In this document: one piece after another, positions 4,270-15,229 of the stretch
Position numbering within the stretch: position 1 is the first letter of the stretch
How the letters are laid out: each line of letters begins with the position of its first letter
From: Thermoplasmatota archaeon
Lineage (GTDB): Archaea; Thermoplasmatota; E2; DHVEG-1
Direction of reading: 5' to 3'
Assembly (NCBI GenBank): GCA_030619765.1
Contig: JAUXAU010000003.1
Span: 11,654-75,653 of the forward strand
DNA: 64,000 nucleotides
Program-made: the position numbers and the translations under genes
The notes under the pieces: generated by a model
Told to the model about the DNA's origin: nothing
Databases searched by the model: none
The model's input: only the letters and a program-made list of their open reading frames with translations

Positions 4270-6777
4270 ATGAAAAAATCCATACCTATATTTATAGCTA
4301 TTATAATGGTCCTTGGAGGACTTGGGGCAGCTGCCATCAATGTTGATAGCACCGAAAATGCATATTCGAAAACCGTCATTAAAACAATAGAGATCGACTT
4401 TTCAAAACCAAGCTTTGCCGATAGCGATAACAAGTACATCAGATTATATCTTGGAGATGAGGAAACCTACTTGATGAATCCTGGTCAACCAATGATTCCA
4501 AGAGTGCTTAAAACATTCGAGCTCCCCTTTGGAGTAACCAACATAAGGATTGATGCAGAACCATCAGATATCCAAGAACTTGAAATTTCAAAAGAAATAG
4601 AACCCGCACCAGCTCCAGTACCACTAACACCAAGGCCAGATTCCGTCATCCGATCCAAGAAGGATGAAACGGTGTATAATAGCAATGATCTATACCCACA
4701 TGAGTGGTATGGCTCTCATGTTGGTTGTGGATTGAACGCCGAAGGTGAGCACGTTACTCATCTAACAGTAAATGTTTTCCCACTGAGATATAGACCTGCA
4801 TCAGGGAAAATAATTGTAGCTGAGAAGGTTGATATTAAAATAACCTATGAAGATCCAGGATTAAATATTTTCCCGCAGACGAGCACCTATGATCTCGTAA
4901 TTATTACTCCATCAAAATTCTCAAGTGAACTTGAAAGACTAGTTGAACATAAAAACACATTTGGTATGAACACGACTTTAAAAACAACAGAAGAAATATA
5001 TGCTGATCCAAATTATAATGGTAGAGATAAACCTGAGCAAATTAAGTATTTCATAAAGGATGCAATAGAAACATGGGGAATTCAATATGTACTACTTTTC
5101 GGTGGTTTAAAATCGATAATTTATGCAAAAGCCAAAGATGATCAAAACCATGGTGCAAAAGGCTGGCATGTCCCCGTGAGATATTCTAATTTTCAGTATG
5201 ATGGTGATCCAAATTATAACTTCACTAGTGGGGAGCCTGGCTACATCAGTGATCTCTACTATGCAGATATCTACAAAGAAGGAGGCGAGTTCGATGATTG
5301 GGATTCCAATGGAAACGATATATTTGCTGAATGGTCAGGTGACGACCTACGAGATGAACTTGATCTATATCCTGATGTAGCATTTGGAAGACTCGCTGTA
5401 CGAAACAACAAAGAAGCAAAAAATGTAATAACAAAAATCATCGACTATGAAAAACTACCAGCTGACCCAACCTGGTTCAAAAGAATGATCTCGATATCTG
5501 GAGATGGATTCCTCGACCAAGAAGATTGGGATATAGAATGGGACACTGATGGTCTAACAGATGGAGAATATATCATTTGTGCACAAAGCAAAAATCCAGA
5601 GGGAGAAAAAGGGCCAGTCGATGAAATACACATAACACTGGATAAAACAGTTGAAACTAACATAACTTTCAACCATGATGACCACCTCAAAGAAGAACTA
5701 CAAGGTTATCTTTATCCAGCACCACCTATCGCAGAAATCATGACAATATCAAACGGTAACACCCTTGGGAACACAGACTACACCTACAGACCACATGATG
5801 GAGAAGCGTACTGCAACGACCTATACTGGTACGCAAACATCTCCTATGTGGATGAAATTCTTACAATACGTGGGAAATCATATGATCCAAAACCATATGG
5901 TAATATAACCCACATTAAAGTGTGGATTAATAACAGCAATGAAGAAACGATATTTACAGTATGGAGAAATAATACAGAAACGTACTACGAGGGTGAATGG
6001 ATTGTCGGAGAAAAATTCCTACGTGGCAGAGGAGGAGCCCTTACCTATATTCCTGATGATTTCGATACAAACAGTGTGTTTACTTCAAATGGTAAATGGT
6101 TTGATCAATCAGATGTAATCGAGGAGTTTAGCAAAGGATACGGCCTTGCGTTTTTCTCAGGACATGGAAGCCCTGGATGGTGGGGAGATCATTACCCTGG
6201 AATACCGGGTAACAGACGATATGGCTCAGTAGCTGGACTTGTGGTTACTCAGTTATCACCCTACTTCCCGTTTTTAAATTTCCCACTTTTCCCGATGAAG
6301 AAATTAACAAATACTAATAAGCTCCCAGTTGTTAGTGTTGGCGGCTGCCATAACAGTATGTTTAGTATATCGTTGATTCCTGCAATCCTGGACCGATACC
6401 TTCCTTTATACATGCATACCTATGGCACGCCGGTTCCTGAATGCTGGGGCTGGTTTATGGTAAAACTTCCAAAAACTGGTGCTATTGCAACAATGGGCAA
6501 TACTGGATATGGATGGGGATCAGAAGGCGACGTGTGCACAATTGGTACTGGTGACGGGTGGATAAATACTGAGTTTTTCAGGTTATACGGGGAAGAAGAA
6601 CAACATATGCTAGGTATGGCATATATTGGGGCGATATCTAACTATGTAACCCATCATAAGACATTTGAACTTGAGTATTGGCGTCATGACTATGGATGGG
6701 ATGGAATTGATGAGAAGACCGTAGAGCAATGGCAACTATTAGGTGATCCAAGTCTCCAAATAGGCGGATACTCCTAA
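4270..6777 (+). CDS. Secreted C25 (gingipain-type) cysteine peptidase with propeptide
   Basis: Signal peptide; SDLYYAD, PDVAFGRL, FSGHG (catalytic His), GGCHNS (catalytic Cys), WQLLGDPSL. Confidence 0.92.
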   Translation: MKKSIPIFIAIIMVLGGLGAAAINVDSTENAYSKTVIKTIEIDFSKPSFADSDNKYIRLYLGDEETYLMNPGQPMIPRVLKTFELPFGVTNIRIDAEPSDIQELEISKEIEPAPAPVPLTPRPDSVIRSKKDETVYNSNDLYPHEWYGSHVGCGLNAEGEHVTHLTVNVFPLRYRPASGKIIVAEKVDIKITYEDPGLNIFPQTSTYDLVIITPSKFSSELERLVEHKNTFGMNTTLKTTEEIYADPNYNGRDKPEQIKYFIKDAIETWGIQYVLLFGGLKSIIYAKAKDDQNHGAKGWHVPVRYSNFQYDGDPNYNFTSGEPGYISDLYYADIYKEGGEFDDWDSNGNDIFAEWSGDDLRDELDLYPDVAFGRLAVRNNKEAKNVITKIIDYEKLPADPTWFKRMISISGDGFLDQEDWDIEWDTDGLTDGEYIICAQSKNPEGEKGPVDEIHITLDKTVETNITFNHDDHLKEELQGYLYPAPPIAEIMTISNGNTLGNTDYTYRPHDGEAYCNDLYWYANISYVDEILTIRGKSYDPKPYGNITHIKVWINNSNEETIFTVWRNNTETYYEGEWIVGEKFLRGRGGALTYIPDDFDTNSVFTSNGKWFDQSDVIEEFSKGYGLAFFSGHGSPGWWGDHYPGIPGNRRYGSVAGLVVTQLSPYFPFLNFPLFPMKKLTNTNKLPVVSVGGCHNSMFSISLIPAILDRYLPLYMHTYGTPVPECWGWFMVKLPKTGAIATMGNTGYGWGSEGDVCTIGTGDGWINTEFFRLYGEEEQHMLGMAYIGAISNYVTHHKTFELEYWRHDYGWDGIDEKTVEQWQLLGDPSLQIGGYS

Positions 6778-6986
6778 AGTCATTTGTCTTTTTTAGCGAT
6801 ATTCCAGTCCCGCCCGTCTTGCCAAAACCAATGATTCCAAAGAAAAGAGCGAAGAAAAATATCCAATATTAATAACCTATATCTTTTTGAATGGGCTTTA
6901 TGTTTAGTTGTCAGATATGTTTTAAAACCAAACGATGATTTAGATACTGAATATAATACTTATGAAGTTAATCGATGGTGTGAAAC

Positions 6987-7307
6987 ATTAAAAAGAAATG
7001 CCCAGAATGCAGATCAAAGGCTGTACGATTATACCAGAACAGAACAGTAGATGGAAAAAGAAAATGGATTCCAACGGCATGGAATTGTACTAAGTGCAAT
7101 TATGTGTATATGGTAGCTTCTGACACACTCATGTACTCTGTGGGAGGCGAAGAGTATAAAGAATCTTTCAAAGGCAAATGCCCAAAATGTGATCTTAAAT
7201 TAACAAAAATATATCGGCATAAAAATCCTGTACATGGAAAACAAGAATGGATATCTACTGCTTGGTACTGCACCAGATGTAAATATGTTTGGATGAATAA
7301 AAAATAA
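6987..7307 (+). CDS. Tandem double zinc-ribbon protein; start codon uncertain (ATT proposed)
   Basis: The frame of track ORF 7104..7307 is open from 6984 and contains two CxxC-x~25-W-x-CxxC-x-YV repeats. Confidence 0.7.
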   Translation: MKKKCPECRSKAVRLYQNRTVDGKRKWIPTAWNCTKCNYVYMVASDTLMYSVGGEEYKESFKGKCPKCDLKLTKIYRHKNPVHGKQEWISTAWYCTRCKYVWMNKK

Positions 7308-7448
7308 TGTTGGATAGAAACTACATATTTTGAGAAAACTATTTTATGTTTATATCTAATTTATAATAAATCGCCTTATGGTCCAATCCTAAACTATTAA
7401 ATATAACTATCTATTTTAGGGCACCTTATACAATTAGAGGCATAATTA

Positions 7449-7547
7449 ATGAAAAGAAGTTCAAGAGTCTGGAAGAAAAGAGGAAAAATGCGGTGGAAAT
7501 GGCGGAAAAAACGAATGAGACGCGAAAAGAGAAGTAGAAAAAAGTAA
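7449..7547 (+). CDS. rpl41e: Ribosomal protein eL41 (absent from the ORF track)
   Basis: Translates to MKRSSRVWKKRGKMRWKWRKKRMRREKRSRKK, containing the MRWKWRKKRMRR signature. Confidence 0.9.
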   Translation: MKRSSRVWKKRGKMRWKWRKKRMRREKRSRKK

Positions 7548-7551
7548 ATAT

Positions 7552-7690
7552 GGGAGCATGGTGTAACCCGGCATCATTGTGGGCTCCAGTTAGGAATGAT
7601 TACACGAGGGTCATCTGATCTATGATGAATAACTGGAGCGATGACCTAAGAAGAGACCCGCCGATCTGGGTTCAAATCCCAGTGCTCCCA
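7552..7690 (+). tRNA. tRNA-Trp(CCA) with a 66-nt intron at position 37/38
   Basis: Acceptor stem GGGAGCA/TGCTCCC, anticodon stem GTGGG/CCCGC, loop CTCCAG-[intron 7590-7655]-A, T-loop GTTCAAATC. Confidence 0.95.
7590..7655 (+). ncRNA. Intron-encoded box C/D guide RNA (predicted Cm34 and Cm39)
   Basis: Box C ATGATTA, guide ..GGGTC.. then D' CTGA, C' ATGATGA, guide AACTGGAGC then D ATGA. The N+5 rule lands on C39 and C34. Confidence 0.88.
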
Positions 7691-8983
7691 TATCTCACTA
7701 CTCCTGTTGTTTCCAGTCGAAACAGGGGTTTTTAGTGGTTTTCTTGAATTTATCGAATTATCCTCTCTCGGAGTACGAAATTTAAGGATCCGATTAATCC
7801 AATTATACGGGGCCTGCAGGTAATACATTTTGGCGTATTGTATATAAGCCATAGTCGTTTTTGGATCGGTATGCCCTAACCAACTGCATACTTCAAACTC
7901 ATCGAATTTATCATTTTCGACCTTGGTTTCAATCAGTCGGGCTATTGCACACCAATGCCTCATATCATATGGTCGGAAGGTCGGCCATACTTGTTTTCCT
8001 AATACACTCAATCGATGTCCTAATAGTCTTACTGTAACAGGCTTACCACTTGGCCATAAGAATAAGGTGTTACCACTGTATTGGTTTTCAACTTTTGGGC
8101 GCCAATGATCAATCCAATTTTTGAAACTCTTATGTCGCGGACAGGAAAGGATTTCTTTTCTCGGCAGAATAGTATGTTTTTTATTTCGTTTTTTGACTTC
8201 AGTGATTTCTATGCCACCAGTTCCATCACCATTAATTTGGATGTCATCGATAGTTAATGCACAGAGTTCTGATGGTGGTCTCATACCAATTGTAAACCCT
8301 ATTGTAAAAATGTATTGATACAATTTGGTTTCATAAAGATCGTTGGAATACTTGTAATGCATTATCTGATATACTGTATTAGGAAATGGTAATAACCGTA
8401 AATGAGGTTCAGGTTTTCTTGGTGGTTTAAAATTCCATAGAGGGATCTCATATGCCCTTAACAACATTTTTAAGGCGTCCCATTCGTGGCGTATAGCAGC
8501 GTAACCTGCATTCTCATATTTTATCCTATACCAAGTATGTTGTCGGAAGTTTTCAAGATTGGGATTTTTTAGATCAACAGAGATCTTGTGCATTTCCATA
8601 AAGCGTAAATAACACAAGTGTTTCTCTACCGTTTTTATCCCCAAATGTTGCACTTCTATAGCATTTCGGTAAAGATCTGTAAATGTTGATTGACCAGGTA
8701 TTAATCGTTGTGGGAAATCTGGATATTTAACTCCAAAAATATCTTTTGTATTACATCTTTTTTTCGCCATATCCTGAACCAATCCAGGTTCGAATTGATG
8801 TTTGACAGGATACCAGCTTTTTTCCATTTTTATATTGCATTTTTTATGTTCACATCCTATCCAATCATCGTATGTTTGATGATCAGATAAGGGTAAATTA
8901 AATCCTTTATCATTTATAAAATTTGTGATATCGTTAAAATCTATTAAATGCAAGTTATCATTATTATAATAAATAAATATCAC
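7646..8983 (-). CDS. int: Tyrosine recombinase/integrase whose 3' end crosses attL
   Basis: GMRPPSEL (R), VKK (K), YDMRH (R), LGHTDPKTTMAY (H, Y). Start uncertain: GTG 8983, ATT 8974 or TTG 8953. Confidence 0.92.
   Translation of the reverse strand: MIFIYYNNDNLHLIDFNDITNFINDKGFNLPLSDHQTYDDWIGCEHKKCNIKMEKSWYPVKHQFEPGLVQDMAKKRCNTKDIFGVKYPDFPQRLIPGQSTFTDLYRNAIEVQHLGIKTVEKHLCYLRFMEMHKISVDLKNPNLENFRQHTWYRIKYENAGYAAIRHEWDALKMLLRAYEIPLWNFKPPRKPEPHLRLLPFPNTVYQIMHYKYSNDLYETKLYQYIFTIGFTIGMRPPSELCALTIDDIQINGDGTGGIEITEVKKRNKKHTILPRKEILSCPRHKSFKNWIDHWRPKVENQYSGNTLFLWPSGKPVTVRLLGHRLSVLGKQVWPTFRPYDMRHWCAIARLIETKVENDKFDEFEVCSWLGHTDPKTTMAYIQYAKMYYLQAPYNWINRILKFRTPREDNSINSRKPLKTPVSTGNNRSSEIWEHWDLNPDRRVSS
7679..7691 (+). 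repeat. attL core
   Basis: CCAGTGCTCCCAT, the tRNA-Trp 3' end. Confidence 0.88.
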
Positions 8984-9270
8984 TCCTTTTTTTTCCTGGA
9001 AATAGAAAATAAAAAGTAAAGACCGAAAGAGAGGGGTGATAACTTGAATGCACCCTTTTGGTTGTTTTGGTAGGAGCAAAAACACCCTCTCCAAAGGTCG
9101 GCTTTACAGAATATCCAAATGCAAATGGATTGATAAACGTTTGGTTAGTCAGTCTTTTCCACACCAAAAACAACCAAAGGTAGGAAACACAATCAACAAT
9201 ATAAAACCCCTACCAATATTTTTTTAGTGGCGCACAGATAGTGCATAGAGTTGAAAGCATAAATCAAAAA

Positions 9271-9315
9271 TCATACTGACACTCATACTGACATTTTATG
9301 ATATTTCATATGACA
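9271..9315 (+). promoter_or_regulatory. Direct repeats TCATACTGACA x2 plus degenerate TCATATGACA (operator or arm-site candidates)
   Basis: Copies at 9271-9281, 9283-9293 and 9306-9315, between the divergent int and HTH genes. Confidence 0.45.
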
Positions 9316-9332
9316 TATCAGAGTAAAAATAT

Positions 9333-9926
9333 ATGACATACGATACCCATACCAGAGAGAGGACAATGAAGAAAGATCTAAAGAAAACCAATAAAGAATT
9401 GAAAAAAGATGTAGCCACAGAATTAAGAGATATGGGATATATCAACGATGAGATAAGACGAGCTCTGGGTTGCACAGAGAGAACATTATATAGGTGGCAA
9501 TCCGAAGACATAGACGATGAGCAACAAAAAGAAATAGAACAACAAACAGAAGAGTTAGAACAGAAACAACAAAAAGAAATCGATGAAATTAAAGAACGCC
9601 TTGACAACTTAAGCAGATATTACGAAAATCTATGGAAAGAAAAACACACACCGGAAAAACCGACCGAACAAGATAAAGCCGAGGCAATAATCCTTCAAAT
9701 GATGTTAGAAAGAAGCTTCAAAAACGATAAACTCTTAGAACTGCAGAGACAGAGAACGCGAGAGATATGGGAGACCCACCAATGGATAGAGCAAAACCCG
9801 ATATGGAATGAAACAGAATACACAGAAGGCAATGCGAGATGGCAACGATTGATGGACAAATGGGATGGAAAGATGGAGAGAAAATATAGATATCCCCAAC
9901 AACTACAAGGATATCAAAACCCTTAA
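9333..9926 (+). CDS. HTH plus acidic coiled-coil protein directly upstream of the dual-spacer array
   Basis: GYINDEIRRALGCTERTLYRW (HTH) followed by E/Q-rich heptads. Alternative start at 9366. Confidence 0.8.
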   Translation: MTYDTHTRERTMKKDLKKTNKELKKDVATELRDMGYINDEIRRALGCTERTLYRWQSEDIDDEQQKEIEQQTEELEQKQQKEIDEIKERLDNLSRYYENLWKEKHTPEKPTEQDKAEAIILQMMLERSFKNDKLLELQRQRTREIWETHQWIEQNPIWNETEYTEGNARWQRLMDKWDGKMERKYRYPQQLQGYQNP

Positions 9927-9947
9927 ATAAAAACACAACCATATAAG

Positions 9948-10306
9948 TGCAACCATAAAATACCTGGTAGCCACGTAAAAAATGAAAACCATAAGATAAT
10001 TGCGAGCCAAGGCATCAATGAAAACCATCAATAAATTGCGTAGCCAGAGGTGGGATGAAGCCCATAAAAATCTTGCGTAGCCAATACAGCAATGAAATCC
10101 AGGGTTCACTTGCGTAGCCAAAATATGAATGAAAACCGCGGGTATGTTGCGTAGCCAAGAAAGAAATGAATTCCAAATTGATGTTGCGTAGCCAATAATA
10201 AAGTGGAATCCAACCCATTACTGCGTAGCCAACTGGATGATGAAAACCATATCAATATTGCGTAAGTATGTAAACAATGAAGCACATACAAATGTGCGCG
10301 TAAGCA
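9948..10306 (+). repeat. TIGR-like dual-repeat, dual-spacer array (8 regular units plus degenerate flanking units)
   Basis: Edge repeat TGCG(T)AGCCA, 9-nt spacer A, loop repeat TGAAAACCA-like, 9-nt spacer B. Period 37 nt (36 once); all spacers differ. Confidence 0.85.
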
Positions 10307-10317
10307 ACGCAAAAAGT

Positions 10318-10349
10318 GGTATCGGCCGTTTTTGGGAATAGCCGATACC
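10318..10349 (+). terminator. Hairpin closing the array
   Basis: GGTATCGGC / GCCGATACC, a 9-bp perfect inverted repeat. Confidence 0.5.
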
Positions 10350-10500
10350 TATACCACTAAACAACAGAGAGAAAGCGCTACAAAGCCTTAAAATAAGTAT
10401 TTTTTGTAGAAATAAAAATAAAAACTACCTTTTTAAAAAATGTCTCCTTAAAATCGATTTAAACCAAGGTAGAAATTCAACATTCATACGAACAACACCA

Positions 10501-10833
10501 TCAAGATTGTTTAAAGGGAAGTTCTACAGCTGAAGGTTCAAGCGAGTAACCATAAGACAGAAGCATAGAAATCATTAAAACACAAATCAATGGCAATATC
10601 AACCCTGGTAGGCTAAAAGCAAAAGTTGTGTCAGTAACCACCGCAACAAGAAATGCAACTGTAGGAGCAACCAATCCCCCGCAGATAGGCAATGTAAATA
10701 TAATTCCTATGCTACCGTTACGATCGATTGTAAAAGCGCCCACCACCATTGCAAAAATACCGCCCACAATGATATACAATAAAACGTTACCCACAAGGAG
10801 CTCCTGTATTATTTGTTGCATTGTAGTAATCAT
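10501..10833 (-). CDS. Three-TM membrane protein
   Basis: Three hydrophobic stretches. Confidence 0.7.
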   Translation of the reverse strand: MITTMQQIIQELLVGNVLLYIIVGGIFAMVVGAFTIDRNGSIGIIFTLPICGGLVAPTVAFLVAVVTDTTFAFSLPGLILPLICVLMISMLLSYGYSLEPSAVELPFKQS

Positions 10834-10857
10834 ACTTCAAGCCTCATAGGTGAGTTT

Positions 10858-10903
10858 GGGTTGATTGCAACGAAAGATCTCACTAGAAGATTGCAATCAA
10901 CCC
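10858..10903. repeat. 13-bp perfect inverted repeat with a 20-nt loop
   Basis: GGGTTGATTGCAA / TTGCAATCAACCC. Confidence 0.8.
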
Positions 10904-10947
10904 GCCAAGTTTAGAAGAGTTCGAGGCGCCAAAAGGTTCAGAAGCCT

Positions 10948-11148
10948 TTAAGGAGACTTAGCCCGCTTTTTCTCGCGTTCGTCCAAGATTATCGATGCAC
11001 AATCTTCACTAATCAGATTTCGTTTTCCGAATTCATAAATCTTTTCATCCGAATACGTACTGGCCCACCGATACTCCAAGATAGAACACGGATGGAGCTC
11101 CGCTTCTTCCTTTTTGGCTTCTGGGATATATACTTCTTCTTCTGGCAT
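10948..11148 (-). CDS. Small hypothetical protein
   Basis: MPEEEVYIPEAKK.. within track ORF 10948..11220. Confidence 0.45.
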   Translation of the reverse strand: MPEEEVYIPEAKKEEAELHPCSILEYRWASTYSDEKIYEFGKRNLISEDCASIILDEREKKRAKSP

Positions 11149-11253
11149 TGTTAACAAACCTTCTATATCTGTAGATGTAGACCTGGCTAATAAAAGTAAC
11201 TGGGCACCCCCTACCCCCAAAAGTTATACATAGAATTTGGATCTGGGCCCCGA

Positions 11254-11505
11254 ATGCCAAACCCTAAAAAAACTATGTCCATCAATCGAACCGTATGGGT
11301 TAAGGCAAGAAAAAAAAGACTACGACACAGTAAAAAACACGGTGTAAAAATCGGTAGAAATTGCTTATTGTGTGTTTATGGGAATACACCCATTAACACA
11401 GACGCAAAAGTTCGATGTTCATTCCATAACCCCGATGTTGTGTTCGATAACAAAAAAGGATATTGGATATGCTACACATATCAATACGATAAAAGGTTAT
11501 CCTGA
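11254..11505 (+). CDS. Small basic Cys/His-containing protein (possible Zn binder)
   Basis: K/R-rich N-terminus; CLLC..C..H..C. Confidence 0.5.
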   Translation: MPNPKKTMSINRTVWVKARKKRLRHSKKHGVKIGRNCLLCVYGNTPINTDAKVRCSFHNPDVVFDNKKGYWICYTYQYDKRLS

Positions 11506-11676
11506 TGACAACATTATATTTATCAAAAATCCACAGAGAAACAAAAGTTACCCCCTGTGGTAACTGTAGATTTATTGGATGTGCAAACACCTATACCAAA
11601 CGATTGTCATAACAACCATTAGAATAAAAACTAATTCCGTTTTTACAATCTGTTATAAAGTCATCAGTAAAATTTC

Positions 11677-11808
11677 TTATCTTTCAGAACTATATATCTT
11701 GTTAAGAAGGTATGATACTTCTCCACTGATTGACCTGTAGTTTTCTTTTGCTTTTTCCCGCAGTAGTTTCTCATCTTCTTTTGATAATGATATCGTTATT
11801 TTTGCCAT
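11677..11808 (-). CDS. Ribbon-helix-helix (Arc/CopG-like) repressor, 43 aa, absent from the track
   Basis: MAKITISLSKEDEKLLREKAKENYRSISGEVSYLLNKIYSSER: alternating beta-strand, helix, RSIS..V turn. Confidence 0.85.
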   Translation of the reverse strand: MAKITISLSKEDEKLLREKAKENYRSISGEVSYLLNKIYSSER

Positions 11809-12060
11809 AAAGCCAATTACTATAGATAGAACTTTCAATCGTTTTTCTAATTTATACGAATATATACTACAAAGGAATTAAATAGATGTATAAGGATGTC
11901 TATTTTAATAGAATGAAAGAAAAAATTAGAAAACCGATGAAAAAGGAAGAAATGAGTTTTGCAATGCGATGTTTCTATTATGGTTACAAAGCATATTATA
12001 TGAATTTAGACTAACCCCATAAAAATATTTTTGGGATTAATTGATTTTATTTTTTGATAA

Positions 12061-12261
12061 CTAAACAATACCTATAAATACAAACAAACCGCCAATACCC
12101 CCAATTTTTGTGCAAGGGAACGATAATTCGATGGGCAACGTTATTTTTTTCCCGTTCCTACGTATCAGAAACGGTGTGCCTACGTAAAAACTATCGTTGT
12201 CAATCCAATGCCTTTCATAATACCTAAAATTGTTATTTAGTCCTATTCTTACAACTATCAT
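12061..12261 (-). CDS. Small hypothetical protein
   Basis: ORF collinear with the minus-strand gene run. Confidence 0.4.
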   Translation of the reverse strand: MIVVRIGLNNNFRYYERHWIDNDSFYVGTPFLIRRNGKKITLPIELSFPCTKIGGIGGLFVFIGIV

Positions 12262-12444
12262 TATATAGTATTAACAGTTACTTTAACTCCAATAGTTATA
12301 CTGAAAAAGTATACCTGGAACTAAGCATAGACTGTTCACGGAGTTATGGGCAAACCCTCCTGGTATTTAACCAGGGCGATTACTTAGCATATGCTTATCC
12401 CAGGTGTTTATTACTGAATACTGAAATTGTAAGTCATTTGCCTC

Positions 12445-13269
12445 TTACAATTTCTTATTCTTATCTTTAGGCCCAACAGGTTTGTCAGGTTCAGATTTGT
12501 TAGACGATGTAGTCCCTATATCGTCTATTATACTGTTAATACCGTCAATTAGGCTATGTAACATATCTATGTCTTCAGGTAATCCAATATAATTTTTGGC
12601 CCAACCAAAACCAACACCTTCGCTACCGTCAGTTAAGGTTACCTCAATCATCGGTCCGCTATCAATGGAGTAAAAGATACCGTAGTCTCCTTCTTTTTTC
12701 GTTGTTTTAATCCATTTGTCATCATTATGTGCCTCAGAAAATAGTTTTAATTCTTTAGGTCTGCTACTTCTGTTGCCTTTTGCCATTTTACAGTTCACCT
12801 CCTGTATGCTATGTTCTCGCATTTTAGTCGATGAAACCAAAAACTCAGACCGAAAAATCATTTTTTCCTCTTTTCTTTCTGTCGCAACAGCGACAGTTTC
12901 ATCAGTTTTAGAGAAATCACTTTTTCTCGTGTGAGTTTCCTTCGTTTGTGTTTCATCAGAAATTTGAGAACCGTGAAACTTAGAATTTTTAATCTTAGAA
13001 CCTGAAAGCCTGCCATCGGCCTTTTTTTCAAAAATGATATTGACTTGACGAATTGTAATCTTAAAATCCAGGTTTTTCCACTGTGCAAATTCTTGGAGGT
13101 ATTGCACAATTTCAATTTCTTTCCAACCTAATTTATCTCTCATAAAACAGACTAAAAATAATCGTTCAGGATCTCGGGCATTTGGATCTTCAATTATTCT
13201 GTTCAGTTCGTTACGCCATTTATTGCTTTTAATGAAATATCGGGAAGTGTTATCATCTGTAAAAGTCAT
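12445..13269 (-). CDS. Putative replication protein: PriX/PriL-CTD-like helical N-domain plus beta-rich C-domain
   Basis: RLFLVCFMRDKLGW..EIVQYL...WKNLDFKITIRQV resembles the primase large-subunit C-terminal pattern (by eye). Confidence 0.5.
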   Translation of the reverse strand: MTFTDDNTSRYFIKSNKWRNELNRIIEDPNARDPERLFLVCFMRDKLGWKEIEIVQYLQEFAQWKNLDFKITIRQVNIIFEKKADGRLSGSKIKNSKFHGSQISDETQTKETHTRKSDFSKTDETVAVATERKEEKMIFRSEFLVSSTKMREHSIQEVNCKMAKGNRSSRPKELKLFSEAHNDDKWIKTTKKEGDYGIFYSIDSGPMIEVTLTDGSEGVGFGWAKNYIGLPEDIDMLHSLIDGINSIIDDIGTTSSNKSEPDKPVGPKDKNKKL

Positions 13270-13565
13270 TGTTTATTCTCCTTACAAAAACTACAATATC
13301 CAAAATATCCATCAATGTATAAAATACCCTTTTTATTGACTACAGACTTACAGCTGGCAATCAAAAAATGTCGTTGTTGGTTGCAATTAATACAATAATG
13401 AATAATGTAGGGTTGTTGCCAGATAATCTTAATGTCATCGGGTTTACTATTTTTTTTGTTAATGTATGCAATTTTCCAACCTAAATCTCGTAAGGTTTTC
13501 TTTTCATTGCCAATGTCAATATAATTAGGAATAAACTGTTGTCTAGACAACGGATTTACCTCCAT
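13266..13565 (-). CDS. Zn-ribbon protein
   Basis: CINC..CSFC; overlaps the next gene by ATGA. Confidence 0.65.
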   Translation of the reverse strand: MEVNPLSRQQFIPNYIDIGNEKKTLRDLGWKIAYINKKNSKPDDIKIIWQQPYIIHYCINCNQQRHFLIASCKSVVNKKGILYIDGYFGYCSFCKENKQ

Positions 13566-13725
13566 AATTAAGATCTTCCAAAAAAGTAATTTTAATGGGT
13601 TTTGGTTTTGAAGATAAAAAAAAGAAAAAGAAAAGTTTAAAGTGTTTGGAATTGATATCTGAAATCAAGAAGGCGTAAAAATGGAATTTCTTGATCAAAT
13701 TCCCTTCTGTTGGTGTATGGGAGTT

Positions 13726-13738
13726 CCAGTGCTCCCAT
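13726..13738 (+). repeat. attR core
   Basis: Exact copy of CCAGTGCTCCCAT. Confidence 0.88.
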
Positions 13739-13768
13739 TCACTCATATAAAATTGGAAGAGGATTGAA

Positions 13769-13963
13769 ATGAATATGAAGGATGTTAATGAATGGACGAT
13801 ATTATCATTACTCGCTATAGTAGCAGGGATAATATTTTATGTATATTGGGGCATAACGTATGGTGTTTGGGCAGATATAGGCATCTATTCTATAACTATA
13901 GTTTTAGTTTTCTCTGGAGTGTGTGGAATATTATTGTCACTTCATCCAAAGAAGGAAGATTAA
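13769..13963 (+). CDS. Small two-TM membrane protein
   Basis: Hydrophobic ORF with GAGG RBS. Confidence 0.7.
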   Translation: MNMKDVNEWTILSLLAIVAGIIFYVYWGITYGVWADIGIYSITIVLVFSGVCGILLSLHPKKED

Positions 13964-14035
13964 AAACTTCTTTTTAGCATATTTTGGTTAAAGTCGGCAC
14001 AACATTTATATATGGTAGATAGTAATTGATGCCTG

Positions 14036-14239
14036 ATGGAACAGGATAATTTCTTCAAGAAACATTCTGGGGAATGGCTTTTGCTTTTTAATGACGAAAT
14101 TGTAGATCACAGTGTTAATTTAGAAGATTTATTAAAAGAGGCAGATGAAAAATATCCTGCCGAAAAGTTTCCAGATGATAATATAAAGATATCAAAAGTA
14201 TTACAAGGGACACCAAGAAATATCTTACGGGATAGATAA
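14036..14239 (+). CDS. DUF5678-like small protein
   Basis: HSGEWLLL...IVDHS..LEDLLKEA pattern; coupled to the downstream aspartyl protease. Confidence 0.65.
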   Translation: MEQDNFFKKHSGEWLLLFNDEIVDHSVNLEDLLKEADEKYPAEKFPDDNIKISKVLQGTPRNILRDR

Positions 14240-14638
14240 ATGTCTGAATTACAATTTATATTTGAATACAGGGATTTCCCCCTTATTCCTATAAAGTTTT
14301 GTACTACGAGAAGAGAAACTCCAACTATTGATGCACTGTTAGATTCAGGTGGAGATTTTATTGTTATCCCCCATGCCATAGCCAAATATTTGGAATTGAA
14401 CTTACAAAAAGCAGGCCATGTTGATACTGCAGGGGGAGAAACAACCCTGTATAAGTCATTTGTTAACATGGTGATAAATGATAAAGATAAGAAATTTACT
14501 TATGAGGATCTAGAAATCCATGTTTCTGATCGAAACGACATACCTGTTCTTCTTGGCAGAAAACCAATTTTTGAAGATAATGAAATCATATTTAAAAAGC
14601 ACGAAAATAAACTTATTTTAAATCCAATAGAAAAATAA
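14240..14638 (+). CDS. Retropepsin-like aspartyl protease
   Basis: ALLDSGGD and VLLGR motifs. Confidence 0.85.
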   Translation: MSELQFIFEYRDFPLIPIKFCTTRRETPTIDALLDSGGDFIVIPHAIAKYLELNLQKAGHVDTAGGETTLYKSFVNMVINDKDKKFTYEDLEIHVSDRNDIPVLLGRKPIFEDNEIIFKKHENKLILNPIEK

Positions 14639-14748
14639 TAAAAAATGTTGCAGTTTTTTTTGAAAAAATTGTTATTTGTATGCTTTTTATGGAGAAAATT
14701 AGGAGAAGGTTTAAATCATAGATTGTTTATTCAGTTATGAGGTAGAAT

Positions 14749-14934
14749 ATGGCATATACACATGAAGGTTGGACATTATATAAGAGAGATGTTACCTTAA
14801 AAGGTGGAAGGAATCAAACTATCTATTTCTTTAGCAAGAGAACACCAAAAAGCGGCTCACCATGTGACAAGCCCGATAATATGGTTGTTGGTGTTAACAA
14901 GAGAACGGGTCTTCCATACTTAAAAAAGAAATAA
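14749..14934 (+). CDS. Small basic protein
   Basis: GAGGT RBS; K/R-rich 61 aa with WTLY..V.LKGG..QTIYFF. Confidence 0.8.
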   Translation: MAYTHEGWTLYKRDVTLKGGRNQTIYFFSKRTPKSGSPCDKPDNMVVGVNKRTGLPYLKKK

Positions 14935-15229
14935 AATTAATCATCTCTTTTTCTTTTTTTAATTTCATATAGATGTATTGTTTTGTCAGAGTGAGGTAGA
15001 TAAAGGAAAATGAACGTTTTTCTCATTTGAAAGTGCTAGAAATAATGAACTGATAGAATTCTTACAATAGGGAACTGCGAAAGATCGTATTGATATATAT
15101 TGTACCTTACTTGCTTCTTTAATGCTTATTGTGTTACATATATGACGTTCGAAAAACATATCTTGTCATTGATTAACATATAACTTTATATATATGACAT
15201 ACATTAGATTATATAGGGAGGTATGAAGA

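Follow-up and report, generated by a model that had tools for sequence, protein, structure and literature searches.

A putative integrated mini-plasmid of a Thermoplasmatota archaeon with an apparent TIGR array, no tas gene and a candidate replication factor related to Prim-Pol proteins

The stretch of DNA analysed here (the window) comprises 64,000 nucleotides of contig JAUXAU010000003.1 of a Thermoplasmatota archaeon and contains a small integrated element next to a tRNA-Trp gene. The element encodes a tyrosine integrase, a helix-turn-helix (HTH) protein, an array of short repeats, a membrane protein with three transmembrane segments (3-TM), a ribbon-helix-helix (RHH)-like protein, two small Cys-rich proteins and a protein of 274 amino acids (aa), named p274 here. 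This gene list confirms that of an earlier annotation made from the sequence alone (the original prediction), which had also recognised no structural or canonical replicase gene. The latter point was upheld by searches against Pfam, PHROGs and NCBIfam, in which none of the open reading frames (ORFs) of the element beside the integrase matched a capsid, packaging, helicase, polymerase or known replication initiator (Rep) family. The coordinates of all the features are collected in Table 1.

The sequence CCAGTGCTCCCAT is present as an exact copy at both ends of the element, and no third copy was found in the 3.17-Mb assembly. By itself, such a pair of 13-mers is weak evidence, with a chance expectation of about 0.5 pairs per 8.5 kb. 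The insertion was delimited by alignment with related genomes. In G002 (CP070724.1, 'Thermoplasmatales archaeon bin45', same genus), the sequence matching positions 6055-7691 at 93.1% identity runs straight into that matching 13726-15225 at 93.2%, and the two alignment blocks overlap by the 13 bp of att, revealing a precise empty site. The same empty-site junction was found in G004, also of this genus, at 87-88% identity. As the flanks are joined across the 13 bp in both genomes, the insertion corresponds to positions 7692-13738 (6,047 bp). A metagenome contig that covers attR (L014) shows the occupied site, with a flank 92.9% identical and an element 88% identical to those of the window. The tRNA-Trp site is filled in one lineage and vacant in equally close ones.

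The tRNA gene was missed by default ARAGORN and by Rfam, and was detected when introns were allowed; intron included, it is 95-99% conserved among relatives. The 13-bp identity restores the 3' end of this tRNA after the integrase-mediated insertion, and the element is a complete, precisely bounded, tRNA-targeting integrative element of the tyrosine recombinase type. The exact 13-bp repeats and the 6047-bp extent at tRNA-Trp given in the original prediction were thus borne out by the repeat search, the intron-aware ARAGORN run and the alignments with G002 and G004, and, besides the empty sites, circular contigs related to the element were found. In two related metagenome-assembled genomes (MAGs), G005 (ends of contigs C28 and C23) and G014 (end of contig C108), contigs break within the tRNA-Trp gene, at or near the att core, which is the pattern that the presence and absence of an insert at the strain level would give.

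The integrase possesses the catalytic R-K-R-H-Y set, with R272, K301, R379, H408 and Y417 invariant across 10 homologues. Its family was detected in 21 of 31 related genomes, commonly as ORFs that extend into tRNA genes, and neither arrays nor homologues of the other genes of the element were found at 61 related integrase loci. In the integrated state, the ORF crosses attL into the antisense strand of the tRNA gene, from which it takes its C-terminus (...WEHWDLNPDRRVSS), and the att core encodes the residues WEHW (469-472), after the catalytic Tyr Y417. In the predicted circle, the integrase gains 60 residues and its stop codon overlaps the start of the gene for the 99-aa Cys-rich protein; the frame for this extension stays open in L014 despite a 60-nt indel. 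An integrase gene followed on the same strand by a p274 homologue was found in small circles (see below) and in L017 and L018, the order predicted for the excised element. Elsewhere in the assembly (G000:C45:2800-4152; L004), another integrase gene of this family (42% identity) is located beside ftsZ and runs into a tRNA gene. As this arrangement recurs in G002 (L028), the copy may be old and fixed.

In SSV-type archaeal integrases, attP lies inside the int gene. The att core is likewise inside the integrase frame here, so that recombination alters the gene product, but the crossover takes place 52 codons past the catalytic Tyr, and the integrated copy keeps the whole catalytic domain in an unpartitioned gene. 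Hence, integration does not split int as in the SSV type, and only its C-terminal tail changes. After excision as a circle, the genes for the integrase, the 99-aa protein and p274 would overlap in a single operon. Integration would sever it at att and exchange the tail of the integrase, with the replication functions possibly being silenced in the integrated state.

TIGR (tandem interspaced guide RNA) arrays consist of two alternating repeats of 8-12 nt with 9-nt spacers, in 5-15 units (PMC12045711, Faure et al. 2025). The repeats start with UG and end with CCA, and the arrays have an A-rich loop, an additional pair in the edge, a truncated first edge and a terminator downstream (PMC12045711); in TaTasR and ParTasR the edge is TGCGAGCCA and the loop TGAAACCCA (Table S1, PMC12045711). 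In the window array, each unit is made up of an edge TGCG(T)AGCCA, a 9-nt spacer A, the loop TGAAANCCA and a 9-nt spacer B (10+9+9+9 nt). The edge reads TGCGTAGCCA, with one copy TGCGAGCCA, and one copy of the loop reads TGAAGCCCA; the array begins with a truncated edge and finishes with a degenerate unit. With its TGCGTAGCCA and TGAAANCCA repeats, the array has the UG...CCA boxes, the A-rich loop and the extra C-G pair of the edge, and it also resembles published arrays (PMC12045711; 10.64898/2026.09.09.750476) in its 9-nt spacers, number of units, truncated first edge, end hairpin and location on a mobile element. Judged by this anatomy, the 'guide-like array' of the original prediction is a dual-repeat TIGR array. 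In contrast with published arrays, its edge is 1 nt longer, resulting in 37-nt units. In contrast also with published TIGR-Tas systems, the element has no tas gene, none is found within 6 kb, and the nearest ones are on other contigs; no protein of the element matched Tas models (Tas HMM, Pfam, NCBIfam), so that the element does not hold a complete TIGR-Tas system. As both published surveys (PMC12045711; Xu et al. 2026, 10.64898/2026.09.09.750476) began from tas loci, arrays without tas fell outside them.

The HTH gene directly upstream of the array encodes a backbone regulator. Its homologues were found both with an array and without it (the latter in L007, L012 and L013). In L009, the same repeats come after an HTH gene 62% identical, but their spacers are unrelated to those of the window, which points to spacer turnover. 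In L013, which is syntenic and has a p274 homologue 84% identical, no array is present between the same genes, and therefore the array is part of the cargo and not of the backbone. As the cargo of such close relatives as L013 and the window element is unlike, modular exchange appears to be ongoing. The AlphaFold2 (AF2) model of the HTH protein shows an HTH plus a helical hairpin (mean predicted local distance difference test, pLDDT, 75), and Foldseek returned HTH matches only. The proposal that this protein could be a hidden Tas or Nop partner was rejected, because neither the model nor Foldseek revealed a Nop or Tas part, and because homologues without arrays exist. A sequence match to Nop5 was also discarded, as it fell within the coiled-coil part and was not significant (E 2.4).

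Orphan or mini CRISPR arrays on mobile elements rely on, or interfere with, an effector encoded elsewhere. The window array resembles such arrays, and the solitary repeats of viruses and plasmids, in being a guide array alone with its effector presumably made elsewhere in the cell, but it differs from them in its TIGR guides, dual 9-nt spacers and Nop-domain effector. Orphan CRISPR arrays and solitary repeat units are treated in references 49-51 of PMC12045711.

For the search of tas genes, a hidden Markov model (HMM) from seven published Tas proteins and the NCBIfam model NF052498 were used on 41 genomes. Two tas genes were found in the assembly that contains the window (G000), at C96 5089-5976 and C16 25356-26099, and none over the cut-off in the 40 relatives. 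The Tas of C96 matches the solved TasR at 1e-23 and has no N-terminal nuclease part. The arrays on both sides of its gene have the edge TGCGAGCCA and the loop TGAAGCCCA, and a third small array of C96 (18517-18740), 12.7 kb off, contains a mixture of edges of three lengths, TGCGAGCCA, TGCGTATAGCCA and TGCGTAGCCA. One Tas probably tolerates both the C96 and the window edge lengths. As the C96 repeats are near-identical to those of the window and one array of C96 mixes edge types, it is plausible that the window array is read in trans by the C96 Tas. An extra transcription factor B (TFB) gene and a short topoisomerase IA gene are neighbours of the C96 tas. The second tas gene, on C16, forms part of a ParB-TasA pair in the order of the published tasParB-tasA arrangement; it sits in a region resembling a provirus, where a DnaB-type helicase and a Toprim primase are also encoded, and its repeats are of a type unlike those of the window.

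Further arrays of the 37-nt type without tas were detected on C11, C13 and C52. The C11 array has homologous units and the terminal hairpin in common with the window array, with point changes in the spacers of the homologous units. C11 and C13 have a common upstream gene pair (a 120-aa protein and an HTH/coiled-coil protein), and the C52 array is located 1.4 kb from the contig end, beside genes for proteins of 764 aa and 488 aa. No protein family was common to the four array loci except for spurious ORFs within the arrays. The 37-nt unit pattern was present in only one of 108 genomes of the family, which is also the sole genome with tas over the NCBIfam cut-off among the 41 in which tas was sought.

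According to the mechanism proposed, the array would be co-transcribed with the upstream HTH gene up to the hairpin, and guides of about 37 nt would be loaded on a Tas made in trans, most likely the nuclease-less Tas of C96. Through these guides, DNA targets would be bound or repressed. The target form was set as spacer A followed by the reverse complement (rc) of spacer B, A+rc(B), derived from the 8-nt 3' overhang geometry in PMC12045711. An exact 18-mer corresponding to rc(spacer A)+rc(spacer B) of unit 6 of the window array (10148-10184) was found in a membrane-protein gene (G000:C133:2660-2677); the TasR geometry predicts another orientation, this one having served as a control, and the match may be due to chance.

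The p274 protein has no match in Pfam, where the Prim-Pol catalytic domain (PF09250) was also not detected, and no sequence match in the PDB. Its relatives were absent from 60 related genomes, from the GTDB representatives and from IMG/VR. A profile search in 1.84 billion representative proteins identified 74 relatives. The close family (n=11) is found in all cases on contigs of <5 kb, and in the distant relatives (250-460 aa) a Pfam Prim-Pol domain precedes a region similar to the N-domain of p274, to its C-domain or to both. When the p274 family was compared with the Prim-Pol protein P0039 by hhalign, residues 204-421 of P0039 were aligned over 206 columns (probability 96.9%, E 1.3e-10), with the Pfam Prim-Pol domain of this protein at residues 36-158. 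As the region aligned follows the Prim-Pol domain, p274 corresponds, by homology, to the accessory half of a Prim-Pol replicase from which the catalytic half is missing. The AF2 model predicts an N-domain of four helices, joined by a disordered linker of 80 residues to a C-domain of four strands plus a helix, and these two accessory domains and their linker occupy the 274 aa completely. The original prediction had described the protein as primase-domain-like, a description that was not sustained: no primase catalytic domain is present, the matches are only to the C-terminal accessory part of Prim-Pol proteins, and a role as primase was discarded on the basis of Pfam, the AF2 model and hhalign.

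Three Prim-Pol ORFs were found elsewhere in the same genome, on C17, C130 and C55. Any of these, or the primase of the host, might supply the catalytic activity, in which case p274 would bind the origin or the template and recruit the primase-polymerase of the host or of another resident element. The ORF904 protein of pRN1 (PF09250) has a separate helix-bundle domain. With replicases of this pRN1 type, p274 has in common its resemblance to the region after the Prim-Pol domain, as seen in uncultured Prim-Pol proteins, and its condition of main protein of very small archaeal plasmids. Unlike ORF904, it has neither an archaeo-eukaryotic primase (AEP)/Prim-Pol catalytic domain nor a helicase, and it shows no sequence or fold match to the solved structures of ORF904.

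Homologues of p274 were found on small circles, the circularity of which is based on terminal overlaps of the assembler word size in four contigs. Two of these, L038 (overlap of 141 nt) and L116 (127 nt), come from two datasets and represent the same 2,892-bp circle, which encodes only an integrase and a p274 homologue. This circle has 27% G+C, and independent assemblies, one of an ENA and one of a JGI dataset, both yielded it. L114 (55 nt) is a 2,745-bp circle with a p274 homologue and small ORFs but no integrase, and L015 (28 nt) gives a circle of 4,004 bp with an 88-aa ORF that is completed across the joint. The large gene that the three distinct circles (2.7, 2.9 and 4.0 kb) have in common is that of the p274 family. 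As one of them encodes no other large protein, the family is likely a plasmid replication factor, and it constitutes the best candidate for the replication protein of these very small replicons. The integrases of the circles belong to families other than that of the window integrase, which argues that modules are exchanged. The small proteins of the circles were also negative for capsid and packaging families (Pfam, PHROGs, NCBIfam). Because p274 is the common large gene of these 2.7-4.0-kb circular contigs, the window element has the appearance of a mini-plasmid family member that has integrated, with a non-canonical replication factor of its own, and it need not rely on a helper to replicate.

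Regarding the remaining genes, the assignment of the 53-aa protein as RHH derives from weak matches only, and a paralogue 74% identical to it is encoded on C116. An integrated element of about 12 kb from another archaeon (L007, 300-12500), located between the L31e and eIF-6 genes, has the HTH gene and the 3-TM/small-protein module in common with the window element. It carries two integrases and no array, and a 625-aa protein is encoded in the place of p274.

Table 1. Features of the integrated element, its tRNA-Trp site and related array loci in the same assembly (G000); positions are those of the window unless a contig is given.
Feature	Position	Strand	Basis or remark
Host tRNA-Trp(CCA), 66-nt intron at 7588-7653	7551..7691	+	ARAGORN allowing introns; final 13 nt = attL
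Tyrosine integrase, 482-codon ORF	7646..9094	-	Pfam PF00589 2.6e-9; phrog_1 2.5e-17
attL core CCAGTGCTCCCAT	7679..7691	.	Exact repeat and empty-site alignment
HTH and long helical-hairpin protein, 197 aa	9333..9926	+	HTH_23 0.0009; directly upstream of array
Dual-repeat TIGR array (by anatomy), 9 units (37 nt each except for one of 36 nt)	9964..10295	+	Anatomy matches PMC12045711
Hairpin GGTATCGGC...GCCGATACC, likely terminator	10318..10349	+	3' of array; conserved behind C11 array
3-TM membrane protein, 110 aa	10501..10833	-	Conserved in L013 and in larger element L007; no family match
Small acidic protein, start probably M25	10948..11220	-	ORF at matching position in L013
Cys-rich zinc-ribbon-like protein, 83 aa	11254..11505	+	Conserved in L013
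RHH (CopG/RelB-like) protein, 53 aa, likely start MAKITISL	11677..11838	-	phrog_10182 2.6e-4; DUF6290 and TraY weak; RelB 0.024
66-aa ORF	12061..12261	-	Conserved in L013
p274, candidate replication factor, 274 aa	12445..13269	-	Homologous to non-catalytic C-terminal region of Prim-Pol proteins
Cys-rich protein, 99 aa	13266..13565	-	Stop overlaps p274 start (ATGA)
Frame for 60-aa C-terminal integrase extension in excised circle	13543..13725	-	Overlaps 99-aa gene start; open in L014 too
attR core CCAGTGCTCCCAT	13726..13738	.	Exact repeat and empty-site alignment
Full TIGR-Tas locus	G000:C96:3900-6800	tas -	tas at 5089-5976; NF052498 137.9 bits; 36-nt arrays on both sides
ParB-like gene, TasA and 36-nt array	G000:C16:24700-27000		TasA 158 bits; edge AGCGAGTCA, loop AGAAAACCA
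Tas-less array, 37-nt type	G000:C11:9216-9688		
Tas-less array, 37-nt type	G000:C13:10446-10512		
Tas-less array, 37-nt type	G000:C52:28170-28526		

The data point to an integrated and apparently intact small plasmid-like element of a new Thermoplasmatota family, with an orphan TIGR array and p274 as replication factor, a reading to which a probability of about 0.6 is assigned. The element is probably still mobile. Several points weigh against this interpretation. The AF2 model of p274 is mediocre (pLDDT 61), and a fold search in PDB and BFVD gave no significant structural neighbour, with a weak PUR-alpha-like hint at E 0.2. The small circles could also be tiny viruses or satellites, the replication role of p274 being deduced from their gene content. 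The divergence of the element from the L014 copy, greater than that of the flank (88% versus 93% identity), fits long residence as well as activity. Regarding the array, the use of a Tas in trans is proposed from repeat similarity only, and the assembly, a MAG of 88.8% completeness and 3.4% contamination, might combine C96 and C110 from different cells or lack a stretch of DNA that holds a tas gene. Moreover, the A+rc(B) 18-mers showed no enrichment in the own genome, with 0, 2 and 21 matches at 0, 1 and 2 mismatches, compared to 0-1, 1-3 and 34-35 for the control orientations.

The original prediction envisaged that the element depends on a helper virus or plasmid for its spread and that the array might target this helper. 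Dependence on a helper for spread is conceivable, but genes derived from a helper were not found in the element, and the lack of target enrichment in the genome does not bear out the second proposal. Transfer from cell to cell would require assistance from outside, be it from a virus, vesicles or another element, or else inheritance would be mostly vertical. A specific version of this idea, considered unlikely here, is a virus satellite of the pSSVi/pSSVx type, which would replicate or persist autonomously but be packaged and spread solely by a helper virus, with the array acting on this helper or on its competitors. The 6-kb size, the integrase and the lack of capsid and transfer genes are compatible with such a satellite, as are the provirus-like regions of the same genome, among them that of C16 with its DnaB-like helicase, primase and ParB-TasA, and the 3-TM membrane-protein module that the element has in common with the larger L007. 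However, no gene of the element is homologous to a virus morphogenesis protein (PHROG, Pfam), no helper was identified, p274 relatives are missing from IMG/VR, and the spacer matches to resident elements are not above those of the controls. pSSVx has genes in common with its helper. Both pSSVi and pSSVx (Saccharolobus, about 5.7 kb) are likewise small and devoid of capsid genes, and the integrase and tRNA integration are as in pSSVi; nevertheless, no genes were detected in common with them, the host phylum is different, and the int tail is swapped rather than the gene being split. These two were the sole archaeal satellites known in early 2025 (bioRxiv 10.1101/2025.02.15.638363).

It is improbable that the element is a decaying or domesticated island, integrated long ago and now fixed and immobile, whose array and small genes serve the host. 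Its G+C content equals that of the host genome (35.4% versus 35.7%), and a diverged strain holds the insertion too, with a divergence of the element at least that of its flank, as would be expected for an island. On the other hand, all the ORFs are intact, the catalytic residues of the integrase included, the two att cores do not differ, the site is empty in relatives that are equally close, and the cargo varies between close relatives. An even lower credit, with very little chance of being correct, is given to the array being a replication origin of the iteron type, to which the HTH protein encoded beside it would bind, as could be suggested by tandem short repeats beside a DNA-binding gene, followed by a hairpin and an A+T-rich stretch. 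In contrast with this, the unit reproduces published TIGR arrays in its UG...CCA boxes, extra edge C-G pair and exact 9-nt spacers, a bona fide tas gene of this genome has near-identical repeats on its flanks, neither L013, the closest syntenic relative, nor any of the small circles carries the array, and HTH homologues occur without arrays. An iteron origin was therefore rejected on the grounds of the published TIGR arrays and of the relatives without the array, as the repeats are not conserved throughout the family.

RNA anti-CRISPRs built of solitary repeats offer an analogy for another role of the array, as a decoy whose transcripts would titrate or misdirect the Tas of a competing element. 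The element has no tas and its repeats are compatible with a Tas encoded elsewhere, four arrays without tas are present at separate loci of one genome, and the point changes between homologous spacers of the window and C11 look like drift. By contrast, the exact 9-nt spacers and complete units have been kept and unrelated spacers are found in L009, which suggests that the spacers matter, and no experimental precedent for TIGR decoys was found in the literature searched, so this role is deemed doubtful at best.

The reading as an integrated mini-plasmid can be extended, tentatively and with somewhat less than even odds, to an element that borrows both activities: the Prim-Pol-derived p274, devoid of a catalytic domain, would recruit a primase of the host or of another element, and the array without tas would programme or jam the Tas of a different element in the same cell. 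If true, this would represent the first trans-acting (orphan) TIGR arrays, and evidence of a trade in TIGR guides, used as weapons or regulators, between mobile elements of archaea.

TIGR-Tas systems entered the literature in 2025. The presence in one genome of four arrays without tas and two tas genes, with one of the arrays on a bounded 6-kb element, provides a concrete case in which use in trans and decoy functions can be tested. The p274 family marks some of the smallest archaeal replicons (2.7-6 kb), and bears on how minimal plasmids may recruit host primases and on the modular build of Prim-Pol replicases. Finally, the element and its circular relatives add to the mobile elements of sediment Thermoplasmatota, a lineage for which almost none have been described.

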